A stretch of DNA of 53,628 nucleotides, filler included, from Sluysia triapertura (lineage: Eukaryota), in NCBI GenBank assembly GCA_046118255.1. It is 4 parts of 4 records of this genome, joined end to end, with 100 filler letters (N's around TTAATTAATTAA, not from the genome) between each part and the next. Parts side by side here need not be neighbours in the genome. Positions count along the whole stretch, not along the records: positions 1 to 16,969 come from JBJNIA010194489.1; positions 17,070 to 30,603 come from JBJNIA010034044.1; positions 30,704 to 42,308 come from JBJNIA010182901.1; 1 more part is not named here. The stretch is one strand, 5' to 3'. The position numbers were made by a program, and so were the translations under genes. Shown piece after piece: positions 551-39,363 of the stretch. Below the pieces are notes generated by a model. It did not search any database. It had not been told where the DNA came from and was given only the letters and a program-made list of their open reading frames with translations. Position 1 is the first letter of the stretch. Each line of letters starts with the position of its first letter.

Positions 551-1040
551 ATGAATGTCTCTAATCATACGCTACATGACAAAGTTTCAAAAGAAATCAT
601 ATCTGAAAGGATAAATCAATTAAATAAAGGCAGAAGGTTCAGGGAAACGTTGTACGAGCCTATCACTGATTATCAAACCAATGTTACAAGTTATACTGAG
701 GACACACAAGATACTCTTGCTACTAAAATTAATCGAATGCTATGCCCTTATAAATCAAATCTCAACGGTCAATGTCTAAAATTTGTAGCTATGTGCAGAT
801 TTGAACATACAATACTTGAAGAAACAATACTCTCTGACAGCTTTCCAACATCCCATAGAAACAGATTAAAACAGTTACTACTTTCTGTGATGAACAAATC
901 GATAAATATGGAAATTGTCCCGAAGACGAAATTCTTTTGTCAAAACAACGTTTCGGATTCAAATAAAGTAAAAATTTATAAATCTAATAACAAAATTTTA
1001 TTATTTATGACTTTTATTTTAGATGTCGGAACTTGTATAG
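551..1040 (+). CDS. Orphan CCCH zinc-finger protein (cassette cargo, unit U1); exons 551-967 and 1023-1040, true start may lie upstream
   Basis: MLCPYKSNLNGQCLKFVAMCRFEH (finger 743-808) = C-x9-C-x6-C-x3-H; phase-0 intron GTAAAA...TTTTAG 968-1022; homologous to the ORF at 19317-19685 (-). Confidence 0.6.
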
Positions 1041-1229
1041 ATCCCTCATGACATATTTTGGAAGATGCAACTTCAATTCATGTTTTAAATTTTATAATCA
1101 ATAAATTTCAGGAATTCTGTTTTCCTTCTTTCAGTTTAATCAATTTAAAAGTCATTTTTATAGTAAATGTTAAGTTTAAAGTTTTATATTTTAAATTTCT
1201 TAAAAGTTTTTATAAATTAAATAAATTTA

Positions 1230-2400
1230 ATAATATAATGAACATAATATCTACACATTTACTTAATCCAAAACATTTCAAGTTTAATCATTAACATCAG
1301 TGTAAAACATTTAATTCATATTTTAAAATCACTTTTTTAAAAAGAAACATTCTATTCAAAATGAAGTTTCTGTAACATCTTTAGTTATGTATTATTTCCA
1401 TTAAACATTCTTCTACCAGTTCTTTTCACATTTTAATTTTTCGTCTTTCGACATTTTAATGTCCTTTTCAAAGAAAATAAGAATCAGATCAAATATTTTA
1501 AAAAGCATTTAAAGTAAGAAAAAGAATTATTTTCATTAACAAGAAAGAAAAGAACTAAAAAGAATTTCATTTACAAGAATAAAAGATATATAAATTTTTG
1601 TATAATTATTTCTATTATTCATTTGTTACTTATGATTATCATTTTTATATTCAAAAGATCATGTAAGTTAAAGAAACATTGCATTTGTTTTATAATTTTT
1701 ACTATTATTTAATTTAATTTATTATTATTATAATTATTATTAATTTATTCTATTTTATATATTATTATTATCGCCATTGTTATTATTATCATTATTATTA
1801 TTATTTATCATAGTTTTAACTAAATAATTTTATCAATTTTGTTACCAACAGTATCATTTGTGATTATAACCTGTCATCAGTGGACAGTTTTTAATTTAAT
1901 GTCATGATGACAATTTCCGAGTCAACATACCGTGAAAGCTATTATGTTAATTCTATTACCATCAATTCAAGTCGAAATGTTCAGATACACAAATGTATGG
2001 CACAATGTCCATCCAAGTAGACAAATTCGGGACCTGTATCAAGTTTGGTGCATCTTGTCACTATTGTCATAATGTTTTGGAGATGAGCTAGGATAGTGTA
2101 AGGAACGTGATTGGTGGTGAACAAATGGATCAACAGGATCAGTCGTAACCTTCAATCTCAAGCTTTGGACAATATCATATTTTACAGTTATGTTAATGAG
2201 CCAGTATTTAAAGTAATTTTAAATTTTTATGATAAACTGACATTTGATTTTTATTATTTTTAAGGAACCCGAAATTTACAAGGATCATAGTATGCCTAAG
2301 ATGTTATGACGCGTTCAATATGATAAACAAATTAACAATTTTAACCATTTCTTAGATTGTATAATTAGATCCTTTAATAATAAATATGTGTTGTTATTCT
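1230..2400 (+). mobile_element. 5'-truncated, internally deleted TGTGGTGG-family cassette (U2) with decayed CCCH gene
   Basis: Leader ~1240-1330 resembles 8540-8640 (AATCCAAA(A)CATTTCAAGTT); box CTGTCA-TCAGT-GGACAG at 1871-1887; finger remnant 2006-2070 (MAQCPS/VDKFGTCIKFGASCHYCH); intron 2213-2264; last exon EPEIYKDHSMPKML*. Confidence 0.7.
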
Positions 2401-2999
2401 GTAAAGTTGTTAGAAAAAGAAAATAAATTAGAATTTTTAAAATTAAATTTGAGTAAATCGATAAGCAACTTTAAGAACATTCATAATTTAATTTATCTTA
2501 ATTTTAACGACAATTTAAAATAAAATCAAAGATATTATATATACCCCAAACAACTGGGTTATTTTCTAAAATATGTTTAATAAATTTCTTTGGATAAGCT
2601 GGTAAAATGTATTAATAAGACAGATCCAACAATAAAAAGAAACGATAATAAAATAAAAGCAATATTATCGTTATCCTCGCTACCACTATTGAATACCAAA
2701 AGTTTGAAAAGATATAATTTTTTACATATGGATAATGAAAAAAATGAACGTCTAAATATTAATGTATTTTTGTAAAAGCTGGGTTAAATTCAGGACAAAT
2801 TAGTATAAGCTGTTTAAGAATTCAAAGCGATTTATTTGCTTAAAAATGATAAAGTTCATCGTGGAGTTTTAAATTGTTTGTGTGTGTATGTTTATGGAAT
2901 TGTGAATTACAAAATTTAGACTACCGGGAGGAACAATGTTATTATTTTTGCAGGAAGTGCGTTATTTTAGAATTTACGTTATAATGTATTGAGGTGAAT

Positions 3000-3787
3000 G
3001 TATTTAACATATTGTGAATGATTGTTTATTTGAACTGTGGAGATTGTTTAAGTGGGCAATTTCTGTTTTTGTGTGTGGAGAGAGTAAATTAAAATTTTGA
3101 ATTACGAGGAGAACCACTACAAATATATCATCCGAATCGTCTACACAATCAATAGAATCTTCTGGTGACAACTCGGACTCCTCCAGATTAGGTTCAGAAC
3201 ACAACATAATAATGCTTAAATATCGAGAAACCAACACCATAATGGATTACATTATATATATTAGTAATTGCCCTCGTTCAATAGGCGAAACAAGAAGATG
3301 CTTCAGAACTTAAATAAAAATTCAAAATCATGAATATAGCTATAAATCATGGAAAAATAACAAAAAATCATAATTACAAATGTTTATAATAGGTACTAGA
3401 AATTGGAATTTATTTAGAAGAAATTAATCCTGCGGCATCCATTCGAAATTTATTGTATTTATTTGAAGCCTTTTATGATCGCTAAGCTGTGGCAGTCTCT
3501 GTTATGCATTTTGATCTATGTTAATAAGCTGTATCTTAGAATAATGGCGTCGATGGTGATAGTAATAATGTTTTGTAAAAGTTAAAATTTAATAGTGGTA
3601 ATAAATGAAAGTATTGTTCAATGAAAGTATTTTCAAAGTATAATCAATGAAAATTATTCAAAAAATATATGGGGATATATATGTAATGTTATGCATTGGT
3701 ATATGTAGAGTTTTAAGATGAAAATTTGTGTATGTATTTAATAATGAGAGTATACTGTAATCATAAGTGAAGAATTGAACCACCACA
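3000..3787 (-). mobile_element. TGTGGTGG-family cassette head (U3) facing U2, with decayed acidic orphan ORF
   Basis: CCACCACA at 3780-3787 (reads TGTGGTGGTTCA on minus, cf. TGTTGTGGTTCAC at 35040), followed on minus by a G-poor leader and ORF remnant 3004-3240 (SEPNLEESELSPEDSIDCVDDSDD). Confidence 0.5.
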
Positions 3788-4268
3788 AACGCCTTTCGAA
3801 ACGTGAAAATTACACAATACACCTAAAATTATTATTATTCGATTAAGTTCAATAAAAATCGAGGAAAACCAAAATTATCAGACAGTACTGAATAATTTAC
3901 TAACCCTGAGTATGTACTTCTAAACATGCCTTATTGATGATCAATATGAGAACAGCACACATAGTACAATTGAGATCATATTCAGAAATCATTGTTATTC
4001 AATAAATAAGCAGAAATGAAGCAATAATAAAATGTTTAATAGTTCTTATTAATCTACACAAAGTTGGTGATGTAAAATATTAAAAATTCGACAAAGATTC
4101 GAAATAATTTAACACAAAATTTGATAGATAATATTTATCAATTAATGTCGAGTTTTGGAAAACTGATCAACTGTAATTTACTTAGTATTTGTTGATTAAA
4201 TTGATTTCTTTTATTTGAAATTAGCGCTTATTTTTCATTAAAGTAGCACATTTATTGTTACTTCAATA

Positions 4269-4345
<77 letters not shown>
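4269..4345. repeat. (AAT)n microsatellite
   Basis: About 25 uninterrupted AAT units. Confidence 0.95.
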
Positions 4346-4346
<1 letters not shown>

Positions 4347-4440
4347 CATAGAAAATATATCTTGTTTTAACCAAAGTGTAAACAATATTTGTATTTATAA
4401 ATGTTTCATTAAGTACTTAGATATCTGAAAATAAACAAAC

Positions 4441-6779: not shown

Positions 6780-6848
6780 TTAATGCAATGCACATATGTT
6801 TAAAGATATTCAGAATTACTTTTTGTCAATAATTTCGAAAACACAAAC

Positions 6849-7827: not shown

Positions 7828-9271
7828 CTAAATGAAATTTATTTGGTATGTTTATGTAGTTAATATAAATGTTTACACTATTAGCTGATAATAGGATCTA
7901 GATGAATGGTGCTGACCAAGTGAATTCAGCGACGTAAGGTCATTCATATTTATGGGCCCAAAACGTAACAAGAAAGTATAACAAAAGTATAATATAAAAA
8001 ATGAAATTCAACATGTTATTATCAGTTACTAAACGAACACGAACAAATGTCATAAACATTCGGTATATTTATAAATTCTAAGAAACTAACTTCGAATACC
8101 GAACAAATTTGTTGAATCAGCGATATTCAAATTATCAAAATCAGAAAAATTAATTAAAGATAAACCTGTTTTTGTGTGACTTTTTTTGATTGTAAAGCTA
8201 TTTTCGAAGTTTCGACGTATTTTTCTATATAGGGTCCCTATCCCCGCATAAAAACAGGTTTGACAGTATTTAACATTCATAAAACAAAATTTTAAAGTTA
8301 CACATTCGTTGTCATCTGTGGTGGCCAACCTCTTTATTCAAAATCACAATTATTAACATTTTACTTTTTCAGATCTATTAAAACCTTTTTACATTCCAAA
8401 ACATTTTAAATTCACAATCTCATAATATTAAAATCACACTTACATTCAAAACCATTAATGTGCATTTCAAATTTTATTTGAAATATTTTTTAATTCTCAA
8501 TTTTACAACATTAGAATCACAATTTACATCTTAAATTATCAAATATACATTTTATATGAATCCAAACATTTCAAGTTCACAATCTTTCAGCACTCAATCA
8601 TTAACACCTTTGAAAAACATAAACACACTTTAAAACCATTATAAACATCCGAATCCAAATAAAATTTTAGTCAAATCAATTTCAGATATTTTAAAGAAAA
8701 GAAATTCATGCTTAAAAGAAGAGAAAAGATTTATATTGCAATTTTATGCGTTTATGCGTTTTGTATAATTTTATTATTATTATTATCATTATTTCATTTA
8801 TTTTGTTATTTACATTTTAATTATTACTATTTTATTACAATTTATTATTATTTTTCATTTCATTATTTTTATCGCCATCTTTGTTACTACTAACTTTATT
8901 ATTCTTACCATTAACATTATTCATCAATACTACAAATACCATTTATATTAGTAACTGCCAGTAATTGACAATTTTAATTTGGGTGAGGCTCTTATCATTG
9001 TGTTAACTGTCAATTGCTGACAGTCTCATAACTGAGAATTTAATACATATCATTGCGTCACACCAACTGGCCATCCAATAATAGTTGATAAAATTAGTAG
9101 TGGTAATACAACCAGACTCAACAGTAGTTAATAAGAGTGTTCTGTGATTAAAAAAGAGACAGAAAAGTACTCTAAATATATATACTCAATTAACAGATAC
9201 CTAATTGTTAGAATTTTAGTTATTGTACGTTTAAAAAATTAAAAGGCTTAAAAGAAAAACAGAGGTAAAAA

Positions 9272-10399
9272 ATGCAGATCGATATTTTAAAAAGTATGCC
9301 TCGAAATCCAAATATCGAAAGAATAAAGTACATCAATGTAATCAAAATAGTAATAATTCAATGATTAAATTAGACCGATTTTATAGAAGTTGTAATGAAA
9401 TAATCATGAATGTTCCTCGTTTATCAATAAATCTTCAAGTACTGTAAATAAAAGTTTAAATCGATAAATTCTATGTAATTATAAAAAATCATCTAGATCT
9501 GTCAAAACATGTTACAATTACTTAGAAAGTTTTTATATTATGAAAATCGATCCTACTGTTTGTGAAGATAAATTGTATAACAATAACGTTGATTTTTTAG
9601 ACAATTTCAGGTGAAAGATATCAAAAACGAGAACTTATAAGCCATGGAATGTCGCACAACCAATATATGTGTTTAGAAAACCCATATGAAATAATAATTT
9701 CATATAATATGGCAAATCGTGGTCTCATGTTTCAAATTGATCATCCAGAAATTCATGCAATTTTGTATAAACACTTAATGCTTTTATTAAGACAAAATGT
9801 TCAAGAATCGGGAAAGTCTGATGTTATGCAGCTAAAAGATTTTAAGAACAGACAGATTATATGGAGTCGTATCACAAGATCGACTATTTCGTCTCATCAG
9901 CATTAATCGAGAGATATATTGAATTGATTTCATCATGGTTAAATATTGTTAATTGTGTTCAAGTAAATGGTAAAGGCCAATCTCGTTTCATGTCTATTTC
10001 AAACATAATCTCATCTAATCAAAAACGTATGGCGCAATGGCCCTCGGAGTAGATGTTTTTGGTACTTGTATAAAATTCGGCACATACTGCCCTTACTACC
10101 ACGATATATCTCAAATAAGTACTAATCAACATGAAGCAGTCGAACACAGAAGATTAGATGGTTTATTGGCCTCTTTAAACTGTAGATATTACCACAACGA
10201 CTTGAAGTTCAACAATTTTCAAGCTCAGGGACATTATGAAGATAATGATCCTCTTCATAAAGTAATTATAATTTTGTTATCCACGCAACCATTTATTTAT
10301 TTATTATTTATTTTTTAGGAATCCACAATTAGAACTTTTGATAATGTATCATATTTTGGACAAAAGAAGACAGAGCTCACAAATTTCATTAACATTTGA
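9272..10399 (+). pseudogene. Decayed CCCH zinc-finger cargo gene of U4
   Basis: Chain of frameshifted ORFs (9649-9906, 9861-10052, 10037-10318); finger remnant 10038-10102 (QWPS/VDVFGTCIKFGTYCPYYH); phase-0 intron 10262-10318; last exon ESTIRTFDNVSYFGQKKTELTNFINI*; AATAAA downstream. Start is approximate. Confidence 0.65.
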
Positions 10400-10579
10400 T
10401 ATAAAATTTAGATTTCATGTATGTCAAAATAAAATTTTATGCTTTTATTTTCTTAACGATTTTGATACCAGAGTAGAAATGAAAGTTTTTAATATAAAAT
10501 TATTTAATTATTTTCCTAACAACTCAATAAATTTTTATAATTTAATTTTAATTTGTTATTAACAATTAAACTAATGAAC

Positions 10580-11400
10580 TATACAACTCCAAAGTTTCGA
10601 AAAACTTGGACTATCATTAGTTTTAACAGTAGTAATGATTCTAGCGTTTTCGATAATTTCGAAGATAACCCATTTCCAACTTTATTCCTTAATAATCGAA
10701 CAGCCTTGTTATCATTTTCAGCTACTTTTAAATACATAAATGTTCAATAATTTTGTGTACATGAGATAATCTAAGATTTGTCTACTGGATTCTATTTAAT
10801 TCGTTGTAGTCTGTTTTAATCACTAAATCAAATTTCGACTCCCCAAAATTTCAGAAATTTTCAAAATTCATAAATTGTGCTTAAAAGGTCATTATTTAAA
10901 CAATATATATAATAATGAAATTAATAATATTTTTCGTTTTGTTTAATTCATTATAATAACATTATAAAATACATTTCTATCAGAACTTAAAATTTTACGA
11001 AATAGATCTACAATTCGTTAACTTCGATGATTTGATAACAGCAACAAAATTTTTCTTGTAATACATCACTCGAATTTTTCTTAGTACATAACCGTGACCA
11101 ACCAAATTTAAGTGTTCGTCCTCAGTAAGTGATTTATGTATATATGGTTGCATTTGCACAGGCACAGCTTCAAATACATGATTATCTTTTCGAAATAATA
11201 CTAAATATTGCGAGTTTTTATTTGTATCTACTAGTACAGGTTTATACCTTATATTTTATTGGTAAATGAGTAACACTCACTAAGACTTCTTTTTTCACTA
11301 TCTTCAATGGTGGCTTTAATGCACTTAATACAAATCTCGGAATACTTGTACAGGCTGCACGCAATCTTCTCTGTTTCTTCGAAAATTCGGAGATAATCAT
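10580..11400 (-). pseudogene. Decayed spliced orphan gene convergent with the CCCH gene inside U4
   Basis: Minus-strand open stretches DYLRIFEETEKIACSLYKYSEICIKCIKATIEDSEKRSL (donor GTGAGT at 11280) and YKPVLVDTNKNSQYLVLFRKDNHVFEAVPVQMQPYIHKSLTEDEHLNLVGHGYVLRKIRVMYY (~11000-11247); no recognisable domain. Confidence 0.4.
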
Positions 11401-13249
11401 TAATAAAATTTAATACATAAATACGTTTCTTGCCTAAACAGTTTTTTAATTCAATTTTAACACAAATTATTGATGAACATAAGTACTGATAAAGTAAGAC
11501 ATTTCACTGAATAAAAGTAATAAACTGAATAAACTGTTTGAAATGAAATATGACTAACATCAACATAATTAGTTATTATAATATTGAGTGATTTTATTGT
11601 GGAATTTTGTAATTTGTAGAGTGTGATTCGTAATTTTTGTTGAATTTATAAGATAATGTATAAAATATAATTAATGTGAGTGATAATAAAATTACTGCAG
11701 ATGACTGAAACACCACATTTTCTAATGATTTTTCTTCTTTATTCAATGTGCCAGGGTTTCCAATAACTAATTATTATTCTTGTTATTGTTATTATTAACT
11801 AAATCAAAACGCAAATGCAAAGTTTTATTGCCGAACTGTCTTCAAGGTAAAAAAACTATTTTTATAATATCGAAAATTATTAAACTTAGTGCGAAGCCCT
11901 TTTAATAAGCTATATAATATCTTAAAAGCACTAAATCATTGGCAATTATATTATTTTCAACATATCATTTAGTCCTTAATCTTTACTTCAAGTTAAAACA
12001 AAAACTAATTTCAGAATTTCTTATAATACTTTTGTTAATTACAAAAATGTTCAATTTAAATAAAAATTCGAACAAACTATCGATTATTTGCTTTATTTCT
12101 TATAATTCTGATAAAACTTAGAAAATTTAAACTGAATTGATGATAAAAACTTTCTATCAATTATGAATATCGAAGAGTTGCCAATAAGTAATATTTTTCG
12201 ACAATAGTATTCCAAATGACAATTTCAACAATAACCGCAAAATAACAAAATATGGATTACCAAAATTTAAACAATAAACGTAAAACCACGTACCAAAAAT
12301 TGAACAGTTCAGGAACAATAATCGAAAATTAAGTAACTACCACATCACTTTTTTGTATTTTGGTCTCAGTCTTTTATATAAATTCAGTAGTTATTTATTT
12401 TTTGACAAATTTTAAAATTAATTAACATTAAGTAATTTTTATTTATTTTAAAACTCGTTTTATTTATTCTAATAATTAATATTTATATTTCGGTTATATT
12501 ACTCAGGTTATTTGTTTACCTATTAAAATTATTATATTATTTTTAATATTATTATCATTTATAATTTCAGATACCCAACAAATAATATTACATTATGCAT
12601 AAAATATACATCGGTATTATAAAATTTAATGTAATGTCAATAGTAATAAAGGATATGTGTCGTATTACATTATGTACTTATAACGTTGTAATACTTTATT
12701 CTACCATGTAATGTAATATTCGAAGAGGTGAAATTAATCTCACTTCCATCTCGAACACCTTCAGATTTTATAAAGAACTCGAAAATAATTTTGTCTAGTA
12801 TGATTAATACAATCAGTCACAGACGGAAAGATGTTCTATCTTAAATAGGAATAATAAAATGACTATTGAGAACAATGTCAGAGAAAACTGATTAAAAATA
12901 TGCACAATAGATAATTTTTGAATTAAAGCAAATAAAATAGACACAATAAAAAAGGAACAATAAATAATTATTTTGAAAGAAGCAAAATAAAATCAAAGCA
13001 AAAACTTGAAACAGTCGTCAACAGTTAGAAAATAATCATTGAATATTTTATATAGTAAAGGAGTAATCACGTCAATTTAAATTAATTGTGAGCTTTTCAT
13101 AATTAAAGAGCAAAATCATGAGTAAAATCATTTACATCTCTTTTAATTAATCTGTCAAAATCAAACTTGGTATTCGTTTTGTTATTGCTCATAATTCAAA
13201 AGCGAAATAAGAGCTTTAGAGACTGTAACTTTATGCTATTAAGTATCTA

Positions 13250-19059: not shown

Positions 19060-20905
19060 ATTTATAATTGTTTTATTAATGTGGTTTAATTTATTGTACA
19101 GAATTAAAATTATTAAATTGAAATTGTTTGTTATTAAAATTTTATTTACTTTATTAAATATTGTTATTAAAATATGAACTTGAAAATTACGATTAAGTTT
19201 CATTGTTATCTTCATTAAATAAATTGTTTTAAATTCACTTAGAAAAAATAACAAGTCGCACAAAACATTGAACTTACTTATATTAATTAAACTACGAGTT
19301 ATAAATTTGACACCAATTATCTTCCGAATACGATTAATTTAAGATCAGTAAAGTAATATTTAAATTTTACTTTTATGTTATCTGGTACCACTCGATCGTA
19401 TTGTAGATTTGTGTGACTGTTATTGAGCATGTCGAATTGTTCCATATAAGTATATTGTACTGGAGAAGTACTTAAAATTGATAACAGCTTGTCTATTCTG
19501 TTGAGATGTAGGATAGCATCTGTTGAATTATTTCCAAACTTTTGGAGTTCGTCAGCTGTGTGGTAATATTTGCGTCTTGTGACATATCTTGAGCATTCTC
19601 CGGTTAGTGTTGTTATGTACGGACATAGGGCCGTCTTATAATGTTTGTTGAAATCTGCTAGAGTTGACATCTTTGTGCATTGCAATTTGTTACCAGACTA
19701 CGATGAATTGAAACGAATAATTTCCGAATTGATGTTTGAAGTTTTTGATTGTATTGAGCACAGTTTATTTGTCATAACAAATAAATCAACATCTACTAAT
19801 AGATTGATAGGCATAAGCATAAATAGTTTTATTTAATCTCCAGATATTGTCATATATCTTTATCAATCTGTTTCATTATATAAAGCTAGCTAATCAAGTG
19901 ATAAACTAAATGGTAAAATAAGTCTGTTCATGATTGGACGACCAATAGAATTATATATTGCTAAATGTGTATTTGTACTCAATGAGACGGTGAGTATGTA
20001 TGCCCACAATCAAACTTCCATTATTCGACTGTCGGCATTTGACAGTAAATATTATCGACACAGTCTTGTTTAATTAAGCTATCAATCACTGGCAGTTACT
20101 AAGATGTGTTCAATGTTAATATTAAATTATTGATATTAACATGATAATAATTAAATAGTAATACTAATAATAATACTGATAATAGCAATAATAAAAATGG
20201 TTAAAATGATAATAATAATAATAGTAATAATGAATAAAATAAAATAATAATAACAAAATAAAAACATAAACCTCTTTAATATCGTCTAAACACAATCTTT
20301 CTTTTAATTTTATTTACTATTTTCTTAACACATTATGAAATGAAATCCTTGAGAATCATAAATGATGTTCTTTTATCTTTGTTGATTATCTGGATACTTG
20401 GTTTCCTTCTTTATGCTTTTCGAATTATAAGTTGTAAATAAGATTGTGGTTTGGATATTAAAAGATTGTGGATTAAAAATGTTTTAAGATATTAAAAATG
20501 ATTTTAGTAAATCTAAAAGAAATGAAATACAGCAACGGTTTTGATACGTTCTAAAAGGTAGTTATACAATGTTAACAAATGTCCTTATGATTGTACTGTT
20601 ATGTAACTATGAATAAAATGTTTTTAATGAATTTTTAAAAGTCTGTTATTAATCTGAAAGTGAATGTAATGTTAATGTTATGAAGTATGAAATAGAAATG
20701 TTTTGAGAAGGTTAGGATACGGTTTTTGTGGAAGTAAAGGAAGTGAGATATGAAAAGGTTTAGATGAAAGAATAATTAAAATGTTATGGAATGTGATTTT
20801 TTGTGACGTGTGTTGAATTAAGTTTGCAATATTTTGAATTAACCTTTTAAGTAAATCATTGATGATTTTCCGTATTAAATGTAAATTTGATGTTACGTAA
20901 TTTTA
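19060..20905 (-). mobile_element. TGTGGTGG-family cassette (U6), first ~90 nt missing, with CCCH cargo gene
   Basis: Leader 20600-20905 (minus) aligns closely to 26985-27170; boxes 20079-20095 and 20029-20045; TGATTGGACGACCAAT at 19931-19946; finger YKTALCPYITTLTGECSRYVTRRKYYH (19560-19640, third Cys mutated to Arg); candidate phase-0 intron 19321-19370. Confidence 0.8.
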
Positions 20906-21191
20906 AGTTTCAAAAGTATAGGACGCATTATGCAAACTTTTTATTTAAGGGACTATACAACAAATTTTGAATATAAAGTTTTAAAATAGCAAAGGTAATT
21001 AATTCTGATATGGAATTGTTGAGCAAGTTTGCCACACTTCTCAAATGTGAAGTCACAAAAAGGCGACCCTCGTGTAAATTCAAAGCTGCGAATTATACCG
21101 AATTCAATTTTCCTGGATACTTGATAATTTATGTCAGTTCTGCTTGAAACTCGACAATAATCGGTGTAATTCTTGCTTACCTTGTCGTATA

Positions 21192-26431: not shown

Positions 26432-26898
26432 GTTAGTCTTGAATTAAGTATTACTATAAATGTATAACAATAATAATCTCATTTGTTGCCAATATAAAAT
26501 AAATTTCACAAAGACCTCAGTAAAACAGAAATTCGACGAATTATTAACTTGTCATTTACTAGAACGTGCGATTTGATACTTGGTAACTTGGTAAGACTTC
26601 CAGCTTTAACAATCTCAACTGTCAAGAGTGTTTAAATATTTTCATAAAGATCAAAAGTACTAACAAACACCTACAAACAATGCCTTTTTGTTAGACCTAG
26701 CTTAAGAGACAACAAAATAAATATGTAACGACTTAAAAGTGCAGTAGGCGTATCTGTAACTGTGATTACAAATTCTGAGCTTCGAATCATCTGTATAACT
26801 TAATATATCTTAGTATAATGTCTTAATAACAGAGGTTCAAATTTATCACATTATGCCTTATTTGAATTTAGAATTTGACTGCTTATTCTACTATAGCG

Positions 26899-29355
26899 TG
26901 TGGTGGTCGACCCAATACTTCGAAATTGTATTCCAATATTTCACAACATTTTATAACTCATAATAAATCCAAACATTCTAGACAAATTTCGTAACATCAA
27001 TTTTACATTCAATACCAAAATCATCAAAGATCTACAACAATAATTCAAAATATTGCAAACTTTATTCTTACCTTCTCAAAACATTTTTAATTCATAACTT
27101 TATATCATTAAAATTATATTCATTTTCAGATTTACAATGTACATTTAAAAATTCATTAGAAACACTTTTAGGCATTATTTAATAACATAAAAATCACAAT
27201 TACACCTTAAATCATCGAACACACATTTCAAAATATTTCAACCTTTCAATCTTTTAACATTCAGCCTCTAATATCATCGAAAAACATTAACTTAACTTTT
27301 AAATTATTTTTAGATATTACAATCAAAATGACATCTCTTCATCATCCTTAGTAAGTATGATTATCTTTAAACAATCCTCCGTCAATTCTTTCTACGTTAC
27401 ACATCTCGGTAATCACTGAATAAAGCCTCTTTTAAAGAATAAAATCAGAATGTCTTTCAAAAGCTTTCAAAGATGAAAAGGACATCATTTACATAACTTC
27501 ACTTATTTATATTTAAACTAAAGAAATTTCATTAGTTAAAACTTTCTACAGTATTTTCGGTTGATTTTCGTATTATTGTTATTTTTATTATTAATTCATT
27601 TCAATTCATATTATATTTTATTATTATTATTACTTTATTTTATTTAATATTGACCCCATTTTATTATCATTTATTTCAATATATCATCAAAATTAATAGC
27701 ATGTGTATCTGTTTATTCACACCCTGTCACCAGTCGACATTTTAATTTAAAACATTTTAGCAATCCTTAGGCACTGTCGACGGATGACAGTAAATTACAT
27801 TTCAGTCTAATCAAAAACACAATTCAATCCACGTGCACTCAAGCTCGTAATTTTAACTTATTAAATATAGCAATTGATTGGACGTCCAATCATCACTTGT
27901 AACAAAAATTATAAAAAAATGATTTTATAAGAGTTTAATTTTACAGTGTTAGCTACCATTTTTATTAATTGTATATTAATACTAATATTTACCAAAAATT
28001 AACTGCAGATTTTATTGAACATTGACGATCCAAATAAATAAATAAATAAAAAATTGTTTTACACGACATGTCTACGATAACAAGAAACATATCAAGATTA
28101 ATGGATCCCTTTTATTCGAACCACAAGACTGTGTTCAACTTAGTAAATTCGAAATTAATTTCATATTTGATTCGTTGATTGTTGTTAATGGAATCGGTGA
28201 TGAAACTTTGGGTTTAGATTCTCTAAGAAGTTTACTGAACGAAAGGATTGCTATGATTTTGAAGTTTTATTAGAGTTATATATTGACAAAACAATTAATA
28301 TGGTACCATTTCTAATTCTTATCCATAGACTATTTCGTCTTGTTTGTATTTCTTATGAAACTGGAATCACCGACAAAAATTTTGTTGCTATAAATAGTGA
28401 AATGTTAAATAGATTTAATGTTGAAAGTGAACAAGATGATGATACTATAACATTAAAAGGTTATTTAGTTTATTTAAAGTATGAGACTAAAACTATGTAT
28501 GATGAGTATAACAGCAAATGTCATGGAATGAAGCAGAAAGTGGATAGAAGAAAACGAAACTGTCTTCAGTATTTAAAACGATCGAAAGAAATAAAGTCAG
28601 ATAATAATTTTTATGTGTGCATATGTAAAACCCTTCGTGAGTTTCATTTCTTAGTAAAACTTTTCTCACAGTCTAATTTGGAATTACCTAATGATTTTAA
28701 TAGTCTAAAGCATGTTATACCATTTGATGTCAATAAATATCGCGTAAAAATAAAAAATGTTTTATAATTTATAATTTGTTGAATTATTTGAAATTATATA
28801 AAACTTTAGCGTTTAAATTCAACTTTGAACAAATAAAAATGATGTGCATCACCTTATTATTTTTCCTGCATAACCAGTATCAAAAGACCATAATTTAAAC
28901 GAAAACAATTTGAATTTCATATTCTTCAAACAAGCTACAGATGCATCAGGAACATCGTATATGGAAAGAGTAAAATTTACTTTAGGATATTGTCACACAA
29001 TTTTATTTGACAAATACGAACTCAAGGTTAAAATGAATTCACCTGATGTTAGTGGACCAAACAATTTTGTTGACAATGTTTACTTGGAAGTAATTCCTAA
29101 TCTTATTACTATCGAATTAAGTTATATTATCTATTTTTATTTTAGGATCCACAACCCCGTGCAGTCGATAGCATATTCTCGAATGAAGACTCGTCATAAA
29201 AACAACAAACAATTTCTTATTATAAATTTAGATATGGAATTTAAATGCGTTATAAATAAAATTGTTTATTTGTCCTCATTTATTTTTATTTCTAAACTAT
29301 GTAATAATTAAATTAAATAAAGCTAATATTACACTGTACAACTTTAAATACACAA
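26899..29355 (+). mobile_element. TGTGGTGG-family cassette (U7) with decayed cargo gene lacking a visible CCCH
   Basis: Starts TGTGGTGGTCGAC; G-poor leader; boxes 27724-27740 and 27774-27790; perfect palindrome TGATTGGACGTCCAATCA 27875-27892; broken ORFs ~28070-29089; intron 29090-29145; last exon DPQPRAVDSIFSNEDSS*; flanked by ATAGCG on both sides. Confidence 0.8.
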
Positions 29356-29418
29356 ATAGCGATTAATGATCAGAACAAATTATTGCTTAGGTGAAATTAG
29401 TAGTAGTAATAATAATAA

Positions 29419-30350
29419 TGTGGTGGACAGCATCTTCGCACACAATTTTAATACATCACACTACACTAAAAATCATATTTTTACAACACCCAAAGCACTC
29501 ATTTCATCAAAAATCATTAAATTTGTATTTAAAATTTAAAAACAAAGAATAAACCAAATGGAATTTCTTTTAACGCCTTTAACTTCATTAATTCTCTGTC
29601 GTAACCCTCTTTCATAATTTTTTATTATATCTTTCCTCCTTTTCATTTTACACCTAATACTTATTTCACGTGCTACTTCTTTACCTAAAAGAAGTATTAA
29701 CCAGTAATACAACTGTTAAATCCCTTCTGAATTCTATTAGTCAATCAAAACTCAGGTACAAATACCTGTTCTTCCGCTACTCAGAAATCATATGATCATG
29801 TATCATCAGTTTCATCTTATTAACCAATTAAATCCACGAAATTCAAATGCAAAGAAACAAGAAGAAGAACTGAATAAGCAACAAATTACGAAGATTAATG
29901 CATCAACGAATAGAAACAAAACAGCAGCATTATGAACATCAAAAGAAGCTACAATTTTATCAGCAATTTTTCAACAATTTGTAAATAATGAGGCTCATGC
30001 AACAATGTGTTTTCTAACAAAATATAGTAATGTTATCCATCGTATGTTGATGGTCTTTATAAACGTGACCTACAAAGATCAAGTTGATATAATCGACGCA
30101 AGTGACAGTTTGAAGATTATTTGGGCACAATTCAATGCACCCATTACCACAACAATATGTTGTAACCGTGATTCAATTCTAGAGATGAAGAAGTATCTTC
30201 CCTGTCGTTTCAAGTACGATATTTTGATTTTTATTTCCATTTCCTTTTAGTCAATTTCCATCCTTGTTTCATCCTTGTTAAAGTCCAACCTACGAAATGT
30301 TCAGGAATGTTACAACATTTTATATTTGATAAACTTTTACCTTTTAATTG
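29419..30350 (+). mobile_element. TGTGGTGG-family cassette, short-leader MEFLL subfamily (U8)
   Basis: TGTGGTGGACAGC; first ~180 nt align to the reverse complement of 39225-39363; ATG GAA TTT CTT TTA at 29558; candidate terminal intron 30214-30250. Confidence 0.7.
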
Positions 30351-30529
30351 TGTAATCATAATTAAATTAGATTTCAATTTTAATAAATGCCTTATTATTT
30401 TTATTATATATTTTTAAATAAAATTGAATGGAATTATAGAAATCATAAAGGAAAATTTTATAGACACAATGTAATCATCGATTTTGATAAATTTTATTTT
30501 AATAATCAATTGCTAAATATATTTCAATC

Positions 30530-30530
<1 letters not shown>

Positions 30531-30603
<73 letters not shown>
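30531..30603. repeat. (GTA)n microsatellite abutting gap 30604-30703
   Basis: Direct reading. Confidence 0.95.
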
Positions 30604-30928: not shown

Positions 30929-30957
30929 TTTAAGAATAAATAAAAATAAATAGAAAA

Positions 30958-33049: not shown

Positions 33050-35040
33050 ATTAGCCAAGTGAGGACTAACAAATCAAGAGAAATATTGTAGATATAAATG
33101 AATGCCATTGATAAACACAATACAAATAAATATTGAATTGAGAATTTAAACTGAATATTATTTTAAGATTGTGATCTGAATGGTATTTAACAGAATTAAT
33201 GTTACATTTATTATTTTTTACTAAGAAGATCGTAAGAATGGCTGAGATAAGTAAGTAGATCAGTTAGGAATTTTTTCAATTCTATTATCCTTAGTGCCAG
33301 ATTCTTTAATAACTTAGCAGGTTCGATATAACGTCTATAATAGTAATTAACAAGGCGCCAGAAATTTATTTTCGAATTGATAAGGGGACGATCTGCCTTT
33401 TTTATATTGACACAACAATAGAAAAACTAAGTTCGCATTTATAAAATATTTAAGAAAATTAATGTCACTTCCTAGAACATTCCAAGAATGAACACTGAAC
33501 TCTAATATGATCTCGAATAATATGCCTCCGTCTTACAACACTATTTATCTTATTTTCTTTACACATTTTGAGTTTCTGTTTCCAGAATTTCGCAACAATG
33601 GTTCGATACTTTCTTGACTTGATTTCCGCAATTCATCATAATCATGTGAAAACCTTTTATAACGGTTTCACCATTTGACCTACGATCAAACATGCACTTG
33701 ATATATTTACTTTGTTCGTTTATATCTTCATTTATCTATCCAAAATTTTATTTTAAACTGAAATAATACGCATTGAATTGTAATACGTATTGGAGTCTCT
33801 TCGGAATTATGTTCATAAGTTTGTTGTATTGATTCTTTAATTAGACTGTTACAATCATTTCGACTTAAACATAAAAATATAATTGAACTACATTCTCCTG
33901 AATCTTTTTTAAAGAATAATAAATGATGTATTGGTGAGACCAAATTAATAAGTTGAAATTTGACGTAAGTTTCGCACAACGTTTCATCTTTATATGAAAA
34001 GGACTGAGTGTCATGATTAATTATTAGATGAGATGGAAATTGAATGTCATGCATGCGATTTATTTCATATGTATTAACATTTGGGACTTGGTGATCTTAT
34101 GATATTAAGTACTTTTGATTGCATAATTTTTCATCTTGAATAAAAATCGGGTCAAAAATTTCAGCATGGTTCTCGTTCGAGTAAATTGATAAAAAATTCA
34201 TAAAAATTAAATTATATTGCGAGATAATAAAAGGTGCTTGCTTTGGAATCAAATAAATTATACAAAGGCAGAAAATTTCGTCAATTTTTGTTTTTGCCAA
34301 AAGTTTAATATAATTGTTGTATTCTTAATTGTTTATTTGCCAGTGAATAGGCAACCTTTATATCCAATTTTCATAGATTACCAAACAGTGACTATATCAT
34401 ACTAATTACTAATGATGTCCTTAATGATATCGATGATGATGATGATGATGAATTTTAATTAATGTCGCTAGAACTACTGTCATTTTGAAATTAATTTTGT
34501 ATTTATTTTATTTATTAAAATTAAATAAAATTAATATATCTTAGTAATTTAATTTAAAGTTATTTTTAAATTAGACTTATTCTTTTAAATGATTTTTCTT
34601 AAGTTAGAAATATTATTTTAATTTATTTATATTTAGCCTTGTAGAAAATCATTAGATGTTTTGAAATGCATAATTGAAAGTATAATATGATATAAAATGT
34701 GCAGAAAGATATAAAAAATGTTCTGAGAAGAATATAGTATGGTATTAACTGAATAGATTAACAAGTTTTAAGAAATGTCTATGTAATTTGCAATATACAT
34801 CTTCAAGTTATACTAAAGATTGTCAGAAGTATGAACTGCAGTTTATTAATGAATGCGGTTTAACATAATGATAGAAATGACGTAACCTGATGTTTAAAAT
34901 ATATGAAAAGATATGAAGAATATAAAGTGAGAAGTTGTAAGAATTCTAATATGTTTAAGATTGTAAATGATTTGTACTTAATGGTTGTGACAGATTTTTT
35001 TAAGATAATAAAATTGTAAGTTTTTTAGTGAACCACAACA
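33050..35040 (-). mobile_element. TGT-initiated cassette (U9) with long decayed orphan gene
   Basis: Minus strand starts TGTTGTGGTTCAC at 35040; ~400-nt G-poor leader; broken ORFs 34300-33230 (incl. 33728-34054, 34097-34300); short terminal intron GTAAAA...ATTCAG (~33176-33221). Confidence 0.55.
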
Positions 35041-37884
35041 CATGTACTTACAAAATTATATAAAATAAGATTGTAAGCATATATTTGATTGTAGAATAAA
35101 ATTGGTTGTACGGGAAATATTCATAATACAAAATAATTGATAAAAGTTTTCGTTAAAATGTAATGTCACTGAAAAATACTACATAACAAGATATAAAAGA
35201 TAATCAATCTGGTTGGTTGAGAATATTGAGAAGTTTAATGGAAATATTGTTGGAATAGATAACATTTGATACTTTTGGAGAATATTTTGAGATTAATTTT
35301 AGTATTTGTGGTCATTCCAAACTTTCTTACACTATTATAAACATAATAAATTAACTAAACAATACATTCCCATTCACTTATTCATCATCTTAGCTTTTTT
35401 ACACTTTTACACTCCACTCCGATACTAATTATATAATGTTAAATTAATTCGTATTAAAAATTTAAATAATTAATTTAAGAATTTTAAATTTATATTTAGC
35501 TTATTATTATTGTTTTATTTTTTGTTTATGTGAAGTTGTTGGATTACTTTATTTGGGATTGGATGCATTTTTTGGTATTTTCAAAAACAAATACTATAAC
35601 TAAGTATTAATAAAAGCAGGTTTTTAATTAGATTTTAAAAAATTATATTTATTACTTTTTTAATAAAGTTTGTTTATTTATCGGTTTTTCTTGGCTGTTA
35701 TATCCAAAGAAAACTGTAACGATGTTGCAATTAAGTGTTTGTTATTTAGAAACAAATAACTTTAATGAAGCAGTAGAATTACTTACAATATACAAGTCTT
35801 ATTATTAAGATGATAAATCTAAAGCTTAAGCCTCTAAAGGATTAAAAAATCATATTGAATCGATCCATTTCACACAAATGCTATAAAATTTTATGTTTCT
35901 GAAACTGAATTCGATATTGATTTTTTATTGCAATCTTACAATAGTGTTCATAACAAACCAGAAATGTATGAAGTACTCATCGTGTATTTTACATCAGTTA
36001 CAATTATGAAATTTCTTAGTTCTTTTTGGAAGTTGCTACAATTAAAGAGGATCATCGAATATTGAGTGAACTGTTGGAAATTTTGGAAAAATGTAAATGA
36101 TAGCATTTTCTAATCTGCTCTTAAATTATGGATGTTAAAGCGGATTATTTTGAATTTCAATGCACAATTTTTGAATTTATTGAAATTTTTCAATGAGGTT
36201 TTTATCAGTAAACGCTTTTTTTATGATTTTTCTTTTGTGATTTAGTGATCCAAAATTTTTACTTAATATTTGTGAATTCGAGTTTCAGTTGGCCTTAAAT
36301 ATAAATTTTATTGCATTAAAGATTTTAAGTTTAATATTGTGTTATCATAATTTGAATTCATATATTATCGTAAAAATACCATGTATAAGAGACGCTCTTT
36401 ATAAAGTTTTTAAAGCCCATGTTTTTTTCTGTAGATAAGCCTCGGCTTATCCATGGAAACATAAGTATTTGAATTTTTTAGCATCGTTTATATATCACTT
36501 TAATGATTGTTTTTAAGATATAAAGGTTACCCTATTAAATCTTTATTTAAAAACTATGTTAAACTTCTCTTTTCACAAACTAAAGTTGTCTTTTTCTGTT
36601 GTTTTAAAATCCCGTATATAAGTCTCAGTAAATATTTAAAAAAACAACTTTTTATCTTAGATAAGCCGCGGTTTATGCATGAGTGATAAGAATAAGAATT
36701 TCTTATGTCTTCTAATTAAAATTATTAAGTTATTGTTAACGTTGTTCCTTAAGCGCCCTAAGACCATCATGATTCTTTAGTCATTAAATACAATTTTAAT
36801 AATTTTAAATGTAATTATCTTACCTTAAAATTAAAGCATTAGTTGAAATATTGTTGGAGCATCTATTACTTGAAAAATATTTAGAGACATTATAGGATAA
36901 GTACGTTACCCTGTACTTAAAATACTGTTCAAATTAATTTTAAAAAATCGTTTCAGAAATATACGTTTATTAACTCGAATATTTCGTGGACGGATTTACA
37001 TTTTTAGAGATTATGATATTTTTAAGTCAGATTTATAATTCATTCAATCATATTTATATATTTGATAATTAACACTTTAATTTCGATTAAATAACGAAAC
37101 GTTTGTAGTTACATGTAATGACAAATGTATGATTGTTCAAATAATCTTCAGTATCACATAGTGTCAAGCAGGTTTCATTAACAGTGTGACTATCAAGGTT
37201 AAATAACTCCAGGTGATTTATGTGCATGGAAAATATATCAAATAAATATTACAGCATTTTGTGTATTGTCTTTAAAAATATTTTATCGTTAAATAATTAT
37301 AACAATTAATCATCTAAAACCTCAGTAATACTTACGTTATTATGAAAATACACACAATAAAGGTTGATTGGTAAAAGAGAATTTTAATATTATATTTAAA
37401 AATGAAAAATAACTTCAATATATTAATTAATAAATTTAATTTGTTATTTGTATTTTATAATTAGTTTAATATTATTTGTAATACTCGAAAGAAACATTTT
37501 ACAGATTTGGAATTAATATTACAAGTAATAATATCAAAGACGATACTATAATTAGATACTTGAAGTGTCAGTTTGGATAATAAATTATCCTTTAAATTGT
37601 AAGACAATAGATACATTAATATTAATAAGTACAAGTATTTATTCAGTAATTGTTAGAATATGTGTATTTAAGGTATCTTCACAAACAATTTTTACACTTC
37701 AATGAAATTCAATATAAACCATAGTTCAAAATATGAATGCTTTAATGAAATTCATTTTCTGTTTATTATATTGCAGAATTAATCACTAATAAAACAATCA
37801 ATAATAATTTATTAGTTTGTAAAATAGTATTATGGAAAATAATATCTACTGTAAAACAAATATTCAAAAGTGCTTAAAAATAAT

Positions 37885-38380
37885 ATTTCTGAAACATAAA
37901 AGACATTCCTTTTTCTTAAGTAATTCTTAATCTTTCAGAAATTTAACATCATCTGGTAACTGGTTGTATATTTTTGAAACAAACGGTATATTATCATTGT
38001 GGATTCCGTATTAGTTAATATATTTAATTTGTTTTCCGAATTTTTTATTATTTCCAAAATATATTCAGGATTTCCGTAATGGAAGTATTTTAATTCTGCT
38101 TTTGCTTTGATTTGTAACCAATATAATTTTTTAAGATAAGGTATTACATGAGATCTTACTTGAAAATTAGTCTTGGTAACAGATTAATTATTAATTGTGA
38201 TTTTTTCACTTTTCTATATGAAATTGAGTACAATATACCATTGTTAAAATCTGTTATTAGTTATCAATGAATGAATAATTAGTTTAGTTGTTTCTTATTA
38301 ATAAATTTTCGAATATTTGATATTTTCTTTAATTGATATTAACAATTTAATTAATATTTTTCCATGTTCATTGTGAATCC
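37885..38380 (-). mobile_element. LINE 3' fragment, inverted copy of 31405-31915
   Basis: Near-continuous reverse-complement match over ~500 bp (e.g. TTTTGCTTTGATTTGTAACCAATATAATTTTTTAAGATAAGGTATT). Confidence 0.85.
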
Positions 38381-38569
38381 ATATAGAATCCAATATATTT
38401 TAATCAAAAAGTATCAGTAAGTTTCTATATTAAAGCATTGCATCTTACCTATGGTGTAAATCGTTATTTCTTTGACTGTCTTTTTCTTGATTGTGTGCCT
38501 TTTTACTTATATTTTCGGAATGTAAAATTCGGACAACTTTCATTCAAACTGACAATAAAATGTCACAAT

Positions 38570-39363
38570 TAAGTGATAAGGCTACTTCGAATAAATAAAC
38601 AATTTACTGTAAAACTTCTTTTATTTCCCACCCCACTTTTTAACAATAAACATTCTCAATTTCTTATTTCTCCAACTCTACTTAGGAAAAATTCTAGGGA
38701 GCTCCTTGGTGCTTTCAAGGAGCTAAACGTTGGAGAGGATCCGAAAGTTGGACCCAAGATTTTGTTTATTTGTTTATTGTAAAACAAATAATTTTATTAA
38801 AACTTTCTTGACAATTACCAAAATTTGAGTAACTAAAATAAGCTTTAAGCATTTATTAAACAAAGAAATTATTGGATTGTTAACTAAATGTTTTATTAAA
38901 CATAAAATATTGAGCGATAAATATTGAAAGATCCTTGAACATATTGATGGTATTATGCTAAAATATTTGATATAAAAATAAGAATTAAATAAAAAATAAT
39001 AATCAAAATTGAAATGTAATATGTGGTATGATAAATAATATACCTTTGTGAGGGTTTCTTGACAAAACAGTTCGTGAATCAGTACATTGAATTGTAATCG
39101 ATATTCATGACTTATGTTTGAAGACATTAATGAGCAAGGATCATTGTTTGTAAATTGTTCAAGAACTAATAACAAAATTATGTATTGAGTATTTCGTTTA
39201 ACATCAAAAAATTTATCATTGTGTTAGATAATTAATGAAGTTAGAGGTAATAAAAGAAATTCCATTTTGGTTTATTGTTATTTTAATGTTTATTGATGTA
39301 ATGAATGTTTAGGTGTTGTATTGTGATGTATGAAAATTTTGTGTGAATAAGTTGGCCACCACA
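38570..39363 (-). mobile_element. TGTGGTGG-family cassette, MEFLL subfamily (U10), with a convergent plus-strand gene fragment
   Basis: GTTGGCCACCACA at 39351-39363 (13/13 match to the start of U4); ATGGAATTTCTTTTA on minus; intron GTATAT...TTTTAG (~38958-39042); plus-strand RELLGAFKELNVGEDPKVGP at ~38696-38755. Confidence 0.7.

Follow-up and report, generated by a model that had tools for sequence, protein, structure and literature searches.

TG-started, gene-carrying cassettes dispersed in a genomic window of Sluysia triapertura, tentatively read as gene-bearing solo LTRs

The solo LTRs of Ty3/Gypsy and BEL/Pao elements, which build up through LTR-LTR recombination (PMC5408684, in part), resemble the cassettes described here in their TG start, lack of inverted repeats, promoter-like content, dispersed copies, and one 6-bp duplication. 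Unlike them, the cassettes hold a whole intron-bearing gene that varies by unit, and they have neither a conserved CA end nor internal gag-pol in the window, i.e. the whole 53,628-nt stretch of DNA (four joined records) that we analysed. Burro (GYPSM1), a giant Gypsy element of planarians, likewise combines an AT-rich invertebrate host, a high copy number, and accessory ORFs for regulatory proteins; compared by its description (PMC6431247, in part), it differs in carrying these extras in or just upstream of a giant gag-env-pol polyprotein of 4,900 aa, no part of which was seen in the window. The TGTNR pattern is given for the ends of both Gypsy LTRs and Ginger elements (PMC2836005, in part). 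Ginger1, Ginger2/TDD, and GingerRoot, as far as the available parts of their descriptions go, share with the cassettes the TGTNR start and introns in element genes, and GingerRoot also 6-bp duplications and captured intron-bearing fragments; the terminal inverted repeats of GingerRoot (100-150 bp) were, however, not found in the cassettes (PMC6839031, in part). Those of Ginger1 and Ginger2 (40-300 bp in the partial descriptions) were found in none of nine units, and the cassettes are therefore not Ginger elements; the target sites of Ginger1 (CCGG/CCGT) and Ginger2 (RTATAY), with their 4-bp duplication, are also absent from the left flanks of nine units.

A gene inside an LTR has its precedent in MMTV, where the sag ORF occupies this position. 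MMTV and Cer1 each have one fixed accessory gene, whereas the cassettes bear unrelated cargo in homologous frames. Cer1 nevertheless offers a parallel, in that unspliced genomic RNA is exported beside a spliced accessory mRNA (CERV; PMC10309623, in part). Pack-MULEs, LARDs, and Terminons are non-autonomous or giant elements with captured genes (PMC6431247, in part). The cassettes differ from them in having no inverted repeats (Pack-MULE), no LTR pair round the cargo (LARD), and no hammerhead or telomeric repeat (Terminon). Helitrons end in 5' TC and 3' CTRR; the conserved cassette end reads TG.. or ..CCACCACA, which is not Helitron-type. The first-pass annotation could match the system to no described family, and this stands: we found no description of such cassettes in the literature covered (Repbase, Dfam, and most subscription journals lie outside it).

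Units, starts and leaders

We distinguish eleven units in the window:

Unit Z, 545..1150, + strand: start outside the window or lost, 3' end approximate; putative CCCH-finger ORF 545-1048 (168 codons); candidate terminal intron 968-1022 (55 nt); an upstream ORF, 2-373, may belong to it
Unit A, 1190..2420, + strand: type I leader without TG start; (ATT)n tract; ends approximate; broken, putative CCCH-finger ORF 1951-2088; candidate intron 2213-2264
Unit C, 2500..3787, - strand: start TGTGGTGGTTCA at 3787, 3' end approximate; G-poor leader without relatives among the other leaders; decayed ORF 3007-3246
Unit B, 8317..10560, + strand: start TGTGGTGG, 3' end approximate; leader of type I with an (ATT)n tract (8760-8900), two palindromes (8955, 9007), and a CCAAT-type inverted pair (9066); broken, putative CCCH-finger cargo 9601-9903 and 10019-10261; candidate intron 10262-10318
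Unit D, 10600..11717, - strand: start TGTGGTGTTTCA at 11717, 3' end approximate; G-poor leader; broken orphan ORF 11252-11503 and 10998-11255; tail-to-tail with B
Unit E, 19060..20962, - strand: type I leader, with TGTTGT at 20962 as a possible decayed start; ends approximate; (ATT)n tract, two palindromes (20095, 20045), and a CCAAT pair (19946); putative CCCH-family ORF 19320-19697
Unit F, 26899..29355, + strand: most complete unit; start TGTGGTGG, end near ...TACACA(A); leader of type I with an (ATT)n tract, two palindromes (27724, 27775), and a CCAAT pair (27877); orphan cargo 28046-28764 and 28874-29089; candidate introns 28744-28809 and 29090-29145
Candidate target-site duplication ATAGCG of unit F, left copy, 26893..26898, + strand
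Candidate target-site duplication ATAGCG of unit F, right copy, 29356..29361, + strand
Unit G, 29419..30531, + strand: start TGTGGTGG; type II leader; between (TAR)n tracts; start codon and first 13 codons common with unit I; broken orphan cargo; candidate intron 30214-30250
Unit H, 33400..35040, - strand: start TGTTGTGGTTCA at 35040, 3' end approximate; G-poor leader; orphan ORF 33731-34483, broken by 7 stops among its 251 codons
Unit J, 35307..36300, + strand: start TGTGGTC, 3' end approximate; G-poor leader; decayed, ORF-like cargo; faces H head-to-head across 266 nt
Unit I, 38770..39363, - strand: start TGTGGTGG at 39363; leader of type II; orphan ORF, short and unlike the cargo of G beyond codon 13; candidate intron 38958-39043

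Their rough boundaries sum to 15,733 nt, or 29% of the window, in agreement with the earlier estimate of over a quarter. The pattern TGT(G/T)GTG has 15 matching sites in the window, among them all seven starts named in the first-pass annotation, at 8317, 26899, and 29419 on the + strand and at 3787, 11717, 35040, and 39363 on the - strand. Each of the seven is followed by a G-poor leader, as had been claimed: in the 250 nt after the start the G content is 2.4-6.8%, versus 9-18% at the other eight sites, and just 4.4% of all 250-nt windows have 7% G or less. The exact string TGTGGTGG occurs five times, versus a mean of 0.29 and a maximum of 3 in 200 Markov simulations. An eighth start, TGTGGTC at 35307(+), had not been named before; altogether TGTGG or TGTTG opens eight units and fits TGTNR. 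Two end types are discernible, TGTGGTGGnCrrC (B, F, G, I) and TGTkGTGkTTCA (C, D, H, perhaps J), the former with 4 matches versus 0 in 100 shuffles, the pattern being derived from those same four sites. TGGTGG was also considered as a primer-binding site and rejected: no LTR precedes it and the following bases vary.

Nine leaders (J left out) were compared pairwise, in 36 pairs. Those at 1230, 8317, 20905, and 26899 form type I, with four of their six pairs above z 7 (z 7.6-30) and two weak ones (1230-20905, z 0.3; 1230-8317, z 2.6); the truncated units at ~1230(+) and ~20905(-) are thus homologous to 8317 and 26899, as first proposed. The leaders at 29419 and 39363 are linked as type II (z 14), and those at 3787, 11717, and 35040 match none of the nine. 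The shared architecture seen at first pass accordingly holds for the TG start and the G-poor leader and fails as one sequence family, since there are two leader families, of four and two units, and the others are unrelated. The sequences of G and I are alike from TG through codon 13 and differ beyond it, while B and F have their last intron and exon start in common (z 6.9; 0/200 shuffles) and their cargo ORFs gave no BLASTP match to each other. Unrelated cargo is framed by homologous leaders, in one pair also by the same last intron. The palindrome block has no supported RNA structure (covariation term +0.94), and we therefore read the palindromes as DNA sites.

Copies, host setting and cargo

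Evidence on copies comes from the contigs of one DNA run aligned to 22540-30525, a run possibly from the source sample and so not independent. This was the single run listed as containing the sequence; the list has no RNA run, from which nothing follows for expression. Over the flank 26011-26811 the summed depth is 28-40, with one contig (25707-26958); it rises to 236-2698 for the bins of F and to 319-10,954 for G, depth not being a copy number. The 40 variant rows listed, out of 935, name 10-30 contigs in the F cargo, 5-14 in the G cargo, and 118 in the G leader; one listed row inside the F cargo rests on a single contig. Contig depth places the start of F to within a 267-nt bin, and the six loose contig ends listed (beside 2,138 unlisted) all fall outside the units. 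Since the one-contig flank reaches the start at 26899, beyond which many related contigs follow, the cassettes are dispersed repeats, cargo included, and the contigs and the 26899 boundary uphold the earlier view of the units as dispersed and gene-carrying, present in many copies that begin at a defined point. Tandem or segmental duplication is contradicted at this single boundary examined, with its one-contig flank followed by repeats.

The same boundary bears on a host origin, in which the units would be lineage-specific host gene families with a common promoter motif, multiplied by ordinary duplication and many of them now pseudogenes. The TGTGG.. start would then be a RUNX-like promoter motif, and the promoter-like palindromes and CCAAT pairs, the host-like intron signals, and the four unrelated leaders, with just the motif and G-poverty in common, would suit such families. 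Repetition, however, starts in the motif's bin with single-copy DNA upstream, where promoter duplication would bring upstream DNA along; unrelated ORFs stand behind homologous leaders; and the copies are broken, in both orientations, and among host exons. We hold a host origin to be improbable.

The units had been placed in or near host introns; a position inside introns was not borne out, the first and last ALDH6A1 exons not being found in the window. The ALDH6A1 sequence is 64-75% identical to animal proteins, and in a quick, unfinished tree (110 of 120 matches used) it forms a long branch outside the arthropod clade, otherwise unplaced. As first reported, no mobilisation gene was found in the six frames of the window, and a six-frame Pfam scan, of limited sensitivity, found no gag, reverse transcriptase, or integrase remnants beside any of the 11 units. 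Matches to Ras and DDE_3 were seen with single ORFs and missed by the six-frame scan.

Stops and frameshifts interrupt the cargo ORFs. Those of Z, A, B, and E may represent a decayed CCCH zinc-finger family, an assignment made by sub-threshold matches: PF25427 matches them at E 0.002-0.11, below the cut-off, and a profile of the four ORFs has six PDB matches, three of them CCCH chains, with a best E of 0.012. A CCCH finger has the form C-x7-9-C-x5-6-C-x3-H, and the cargo of unit E is missing the third cysteine. A MATH/TRAF reading of that cargo, which would recall an accessory ORF of Burro, is a lead at most, with an atlas score of 0.88 (sub-0.9) and no TRAF Pfam match at E<=0.5; CCCH fits better. 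The F cargo ORF has no homologue in the atlas, by phmmer among 1.84 billion proteins, or in viral and metagenome contigs; none was found for the Z cargo ORF, nor for the four-ORF profile among longer proteins. For C, D, G, H, I, and J the cargo search covered Pfam, to which PHROGs was added for D, G, H, and I. The cargo had been called orphan ORFs, and is indeed without outside homologues in these searches, although the ORFs are not intact and independent, being broken and in four cases mutually related. Structure models are poor (pLDDT 37 for Z and 44 for part of H), and the best fold match of the H model, at Z 6.3, is uninformative with so poor a model.

Integrated segments of a multipartite DNA virus, or a virus-derived gene-delivery system, would have a common region and one spliced gene each. 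The layout of common region plus variable gene agrees with this, and the repeated palindromes could be replication or recombination sites. Viral contigs, however, hold no relative of the F or E cargo, the type II motif is absent from viral and metagenome contigs alike, no PHROG match among 14 ORFs is better than E 0.002, and the single H model searched (pLDDT 44) matches no viral fold at E<=0.001. A viral origin is accordingly very improbable in our estimate.

Far ends and candidate modes of movement

No common far end emerged among the 11 regions compared. A CA end is plausible for F and weak for I, and TG...CA with a flanking duplication is plausible in one of nine units, namely F, where a 6-bp direct repeat (it could be 6 or 7 bp) lies on both sides, one base off a CA. 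The chance of the ATAGCG duplication is about 0.03 (270-nt range, F alone); exact but AT-rich 6-mers flank five other units, so this single convincing duplication is weak evidence. The TG end is conserved and the far end is not, which leaves each unit one conserved end, not two; of the TGT...ACA termini suggested at first, the TG start survives and the ACA end does not. In none of nine cases is the start matched, within 4 kb, by an inverted copy that clearly exceeds shuffles (best score, unit C, 27 vs 20.3 +/- 2.5), as expected of an LTR and not of a cut-and-paste transposon. A short terminal intron, claimed as a usual feature, has candidates in 6 of the 11 units (seven introns, 37-86 nt) and was not seen in those at 3787, 11717, 20905, 35040, and 35307; intron-like strings are common, with 18 strict donor-acceptor pairs in the window. 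AATAAA fell away as a unit feature, and carries no weight, because AATAAA/ATTAAA occurs 3 to 11 times in every 3' region examined.

The two end types could also be the left arm (TGTGGTGGnCrrC) and right arm (TGTkGTGkTTCA) of Pack-type, non-autonomous DNA transposons with degenerate ends, inward promoters, and captured genes. MuDR is a precedent for an inward promoter in each arm. Both end types are real in the sequence, the facing pairs A/C, B/D, G/H, and J/I each join opposite types, and a 500-nt segment has equal orientation relative to G and I. Movement at the DNA level keeps introns, and GingerRoot captures intron-bearing gene fragments (PMC6839031, in part). Nevertheless, terminal inverted repeats are lacking; the outer flanks of B-D, G-H, and J-I show no duplication, while F, a single unit, has its own; the G/H pair crosses a scaffold gap; C and D are not homologous, nor are the A/C and B/D junctions; and the 500-nt segment, much less diverged at 84% against 66% for the G/I leaders, fits a separate younger repeat. 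We consider such transposons unlikely.

One sharp end with variable far ends would also agree with target-primed (non-LTR or Penelope-like) mobilisation and one fixed end, as would the missing starts of A and E, the (AGT)n tract that ends unit G, and a duplication of 6 or 7 bp at F; Penelope-like elements, moreover, have accessory ORFs (PMC6431247, in part). Either the RNA would have its 5' end at TGTGG and be driven by an internal promoter, or an opposite-strand RNA would end in ...CCACCACA, so that the cargo is antisense and its introns survive. In the antisense version A and E would be truncated at the priming end, which this mechanism preserves. No far end showed a poly(A) tail, no reverse transcriptase remnant turned up in the window, and no hammerhead or other Rfam match appears in it at E<=1, although divergent hammerheads could be missed. 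Target-primed movement therefore seems quite unlikely to us.

Proposed origin and meaning

The cassettes are probably remnants of a mobile-element family that picks up genes and disperses them. Three kinds of mobile system had been left open at first pass; the Ginger option fails for want of terminal inverted repeats and a Ginger target site, virus segments have no positive evidence, and solo LTRs fit best. We tentatively favour solo LTRs that carry genes, or else non-autonomous units derived from LTRs and mobilised in trans (probability about 0.45), a reading that is unproven because a CA end and target duplication occur in one unit only. It has to accommodate several contrary observations. 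Solo LTRs are usually accompanied by some internal fragments, and none lies beside any of the 11 units. Several units are close neighbours (F-G 63 nt, H-J 266 nt) and A/C and B/D are apparently tail-to-tail, an arrangement that solo LTRs do not predict. There is no conserved CA end, convincing duplication is limited to one of nine units, and four leaders are unrelated (J outside the pairwise test).

As solo LTRs, the units would have been inserted long ago by several retroelement lineages, related or convergent, in which an LTR, or LTR-derived non-autonomous unit, carries its own accessory gene. The TG end would be the U3 end recognised by integrase, and the palindromes and CCAAT pair behind (ATT)n an internal promoter for the cargo, whose mRNA would be spliced and subgenomic, the intron staying in the unspliced genomic RNA; by analogy of fold, the CCCH cargo would encode an accessory protein that binds RNA. 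Cargo may be exchanged through template switching or recombination, enzymes would come from full gag-pol elements elsewhere in the genome, and LTR-LTR recombination would have left the solo cassettes in the window.

It is an unlikely idea that the cassettes belong to an undescribed animal mobile system acting as a natural expression vector. Unrelated genes would be swapped into a fixed frame made up of the integration end, the leader, either a promoter or a start codon followed by signal-like first codons, the terminal intron, and the polyadenylation region, and every new combination would be amplified in trans to many copies. Such a system would be a cassette factory for lineage-specific spliced genes that fits no LTR, Ginger, MULE, Helitron, or Penelope family. 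If the partner proves to be an ordinary family of Gypsy or BEL elements, what remains is an odd LTR family. At about 29% of the window, many units would be misread as host orphan genes by standard annotation. If they are LTRs, they would be an unusual case in an animal, each with a complete, exchangeable spliced gene and in high copy, and, on a question still open in genome evolution, they would point to a tangible way for orphan genes to arise and disperse.

Genomic setting of the cassettes

The window is eukaryotic sequence of 74% A+T with four gaps, and the following features accompany the gene-carrying cassettes:

16970-17069, 30604-30703 and 42309-42408: gaps of 100 letters each, centred on a 12-letter linker of stop codons
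22379-22522: gap
4420-7897 (-): ALDH6A1 gene
49661-52974 (+): Ras-like gene (Pfam Ras, E 0.005) with long, repeat-filled introns
21188-21670, 51762-52214 and 5947-6717: remains of elements whose ends are inverted (51514-51738 matches DDE_3 at E 0.005)
30707-30931, 46870-47220 and 53461-53626: short repeat containing a TCTG tract, present three times
20-92: small element with inverted repeats, lying within the reading frame that precedes unit Z (ORF at 545(+))

Because of the linker, adjacency across the three 100-letter gaps may be artificial. Identity of the ALDH6A1 exon to animal proteins is 64-75%, and a quick tree puts the gene on a long, unplaced branch among animals, outside the arthropod clade; the host is therefore an animal. 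The first ~50 codons and the last exon of this gene were not found in the window. We take the remnants with inverted ends to be Tc1/mariner-like; the TCTG-tract repeat presumably resembles DINE-1/Helentron-type elements, and the element at 20-92 is presumably a hAT-like MITE. A decayed ORF of about 240 codons at 13200-13912 (-), without a G-poor leader, had no Pfam or PHROG match.

Unit starts, leaders and their recurrence

All seven TG starts named by the first-pass annotation are present at their sites (units C, 3787(-); B, 8317(+); D, 11717(-); F, 26899(+); G, 29419(+); H, 35040(-); I, 39363(-)). A loose start pattern matched 15 times in the window, and just these seven are followed by a leader of at most 7% G, which 4.4% of 250-nt windows attain; exact TGTGGTGG has 5 occurrences where 0.29 would be expected. 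With a relaxed scan, one more start came to light at 35307(+) (unit J), head-to-head with the unit at 35040, and the total comes to 11 units, including two truncated ones (A, ~1230(+); E, ~20905(-)) and the ORF at 545. Within rough boundaries they cover about 29% of the window, in agreement with the earlier estimate of over a quarter. The idea of a single sequence family did not survive pairwise scoring of the leaders, which split into type I (A, B, E, F; four of six pairs at z 7.6-30), type II (G and I; z 14), and those of C, D and H, which matched no other leader compared. Common to type I units are an (ATT)n tract and a CAAAACATTT core (four copies in the window, none outside type I); they also have palindromes that follow the pattern CTGYCA-N5-YGAYA, and B, E and F contain a CCAAT pair in inverted orientation. 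Since the palindrome block gave no supported RNA structure, we take it as putative DNA binding sites; the palindromes and CCAAT pairs are presumably look-alikes of TALE-homeodomain and NF-Y sites. Another G-poor, (ATT)n-rich stretch, 14700-16129 (+), has no TG start, and is followed by an ORF (15767-16129(+)) and by a cysteine-rich frame on the minus strand near 15500-15720; it could be another decayed unit or an exon of the host.

Contigs from a single public DNA sequencing run (X1), which may be the source sample, were compared at 80% likeness over 22540-30525. The flank at 26011-26811 has a summed depth of 28-40 and one contig, whose end lies 60 nt into F; the bin containing the F start reaches a depth of 723, and depth across F is 236-2698. 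For G it is 10,954 in the leader and 319-376 in the cargo (the carried ORF), depth in X1 not being equal to copy number. Among the variant rows listed (40 of 935), the F cargo has 10-30 contigs named, with a single contig in one further row, the G cargo 5-14 and the G leader 118. These contrasts show that leader and cargo both recur, with leaders much commoner than any single cargo, and they place the beginning of the repeat within the 267-nt bin containing F's TG motif. The region 22540-25743 holds several very high-copy repeats (summed depth in X1 up to 76,000). At 26087-26464 (+), 435 nt upstream of F, lies an ORF that is single-copy, resembles an exon and has a splice acceptor; no family was found for it.

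Modularity and cargo

Modularity is the most striking feature of the cassettes. In G and I, the alignment begins at the TG start and extends past the start codon over 13 codons, after which the two diverge. Besides a type I leader, B and F have in common the last intron and the beginning of the final exon (z 6.9), although the ORF of B belongs to the CCCH group and that of F is unrelated to it; for A against B, the last intron and last-exon start give z 3.9. As to the proposed terminal intron with AATAAA, six units have candidate introns where their ORFs end, seven in all (37-86 nt, GT-AG ends). They stay candidates, not proven introns, because the window has 18 strings of similar form and polyadenylation hexamers throughout.

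The cargo ORFs of Z, A, B and E are related (32% over 56 residues for Z and E), score weakly against the CCCH model (E 0.002-0.11), and as a profile gave six PDB matches, three of them CCCH fingers (best E 0.012); cargo E also has a sub-threshold TRAF lead in the protein atlas. The ORFs of F, G, H, I, C, D and J are unrelated to this group and to one another, J being judged from its translation, and no outside homologues were found for the cargo ORFs searched. The ORFs are broken, that of G for example by 5 stops in 218 codons and that of H by 7 in 251. Between F and most other contigs, 5 of 8 listed differing sites fall at first or second codon positions, in this small sample a spread as neutral decay would give. 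Host gene families are a very unlikely explanation of the units and virus segments an even less probable one, these two being the worst fits.

Ends, mobilisation and affinities

Within 4 kb, none of nine starts is matched by an inverted copy of itself, and the 11 regions have no common far-end sequence beyond intron similarity and AT-rich noise. ATAGCG stands on both sides of F, one base from a CA, with a chance of about 0.03 for F alone, nine units having been examined; five other units have exact 6-mers too, AT-rich ones. No duplication stands at the outer flanks of the facing pairs B-D, G-H and J-I. A 94-nt repeat (83%) occurs at 38664-38757 and 49180-49273; its first copy adjoins I at the 3' end and may have truncated this unit. 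An AT-rich 500-nt segment forms an inverted pair (31405-31920 and 37881-38381; 84% identical, core 95%), its two copies oriented alike with respect to the type II leaders of G and I. As first noted, no mobilisation gene is in view: six-frame Pfam scans, of limited sensitivity, gave just ALDH and one CCCH match in 24 frames, and the mobilising partner is unseen.

Passages of PMC2836005 describe Ginger1 and Ginger2 as requiring terminal inverted repeats and specific 4-bp targets, and passages of PMC6839031 describe GingerRoot as requiring inverted repeats of 100-150 bp; the cassettes depart from the former on both counts and from the latter on its inverted repeats. In the relevant parts of PMC6431247, Burro extras sit in or beside a giant polyprotein, which is absent from the window (Burro is set apart by this description, not by LTR sequences), and Terminons require a hammerhead, whereas the window gave no Rfam match. 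A literature search that covered few subscription journals and neither Repbase nor Dfam showed no description of such cassettes.

A solo LTR is the best fit, because of the TG start without inverted repeats, the promoter-like content, the dispersal with unique flanks and the one 6-bp duplication; however, no CA end is conserved, a convincing duplication is confined to F, no internal fragment lies beside any of the 11 units, and neighbouring units are closely paired. This pairing, with two end kinds facing each other in four pairs, leaves some room for a two-armed DNA transposon, which we consider unlikely; target-primed insertion, which one fixed end and variable far ends would suit, is a little less likely again. 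A gene inside an LTR has a precedent in MMTV. The sense-strand intron is a difficulty for the LTR reading. LTR elements can nevertheless export unspliced genomic RNA and make spliced accessory mRNAs, as described for Cer1 CERV in PMC10309623. Unspliced genomic RNA of the cassettes would likewise be exported while a spliced accessory mRNA is made. Given the Cer1 CERV and MMTV precedents, we put gene-bearing LTRs or LTR-derived non-autonomous units at roughly 0.45 despite the intron. It is doubtful that the cassettes, as a system swapping and amplifying spliced genes, lie outside every known family; they are a genuine mobile system, present in many copies and carrying genes as exchangeable cargo, and most probably represent a novel form of LTR-type element.
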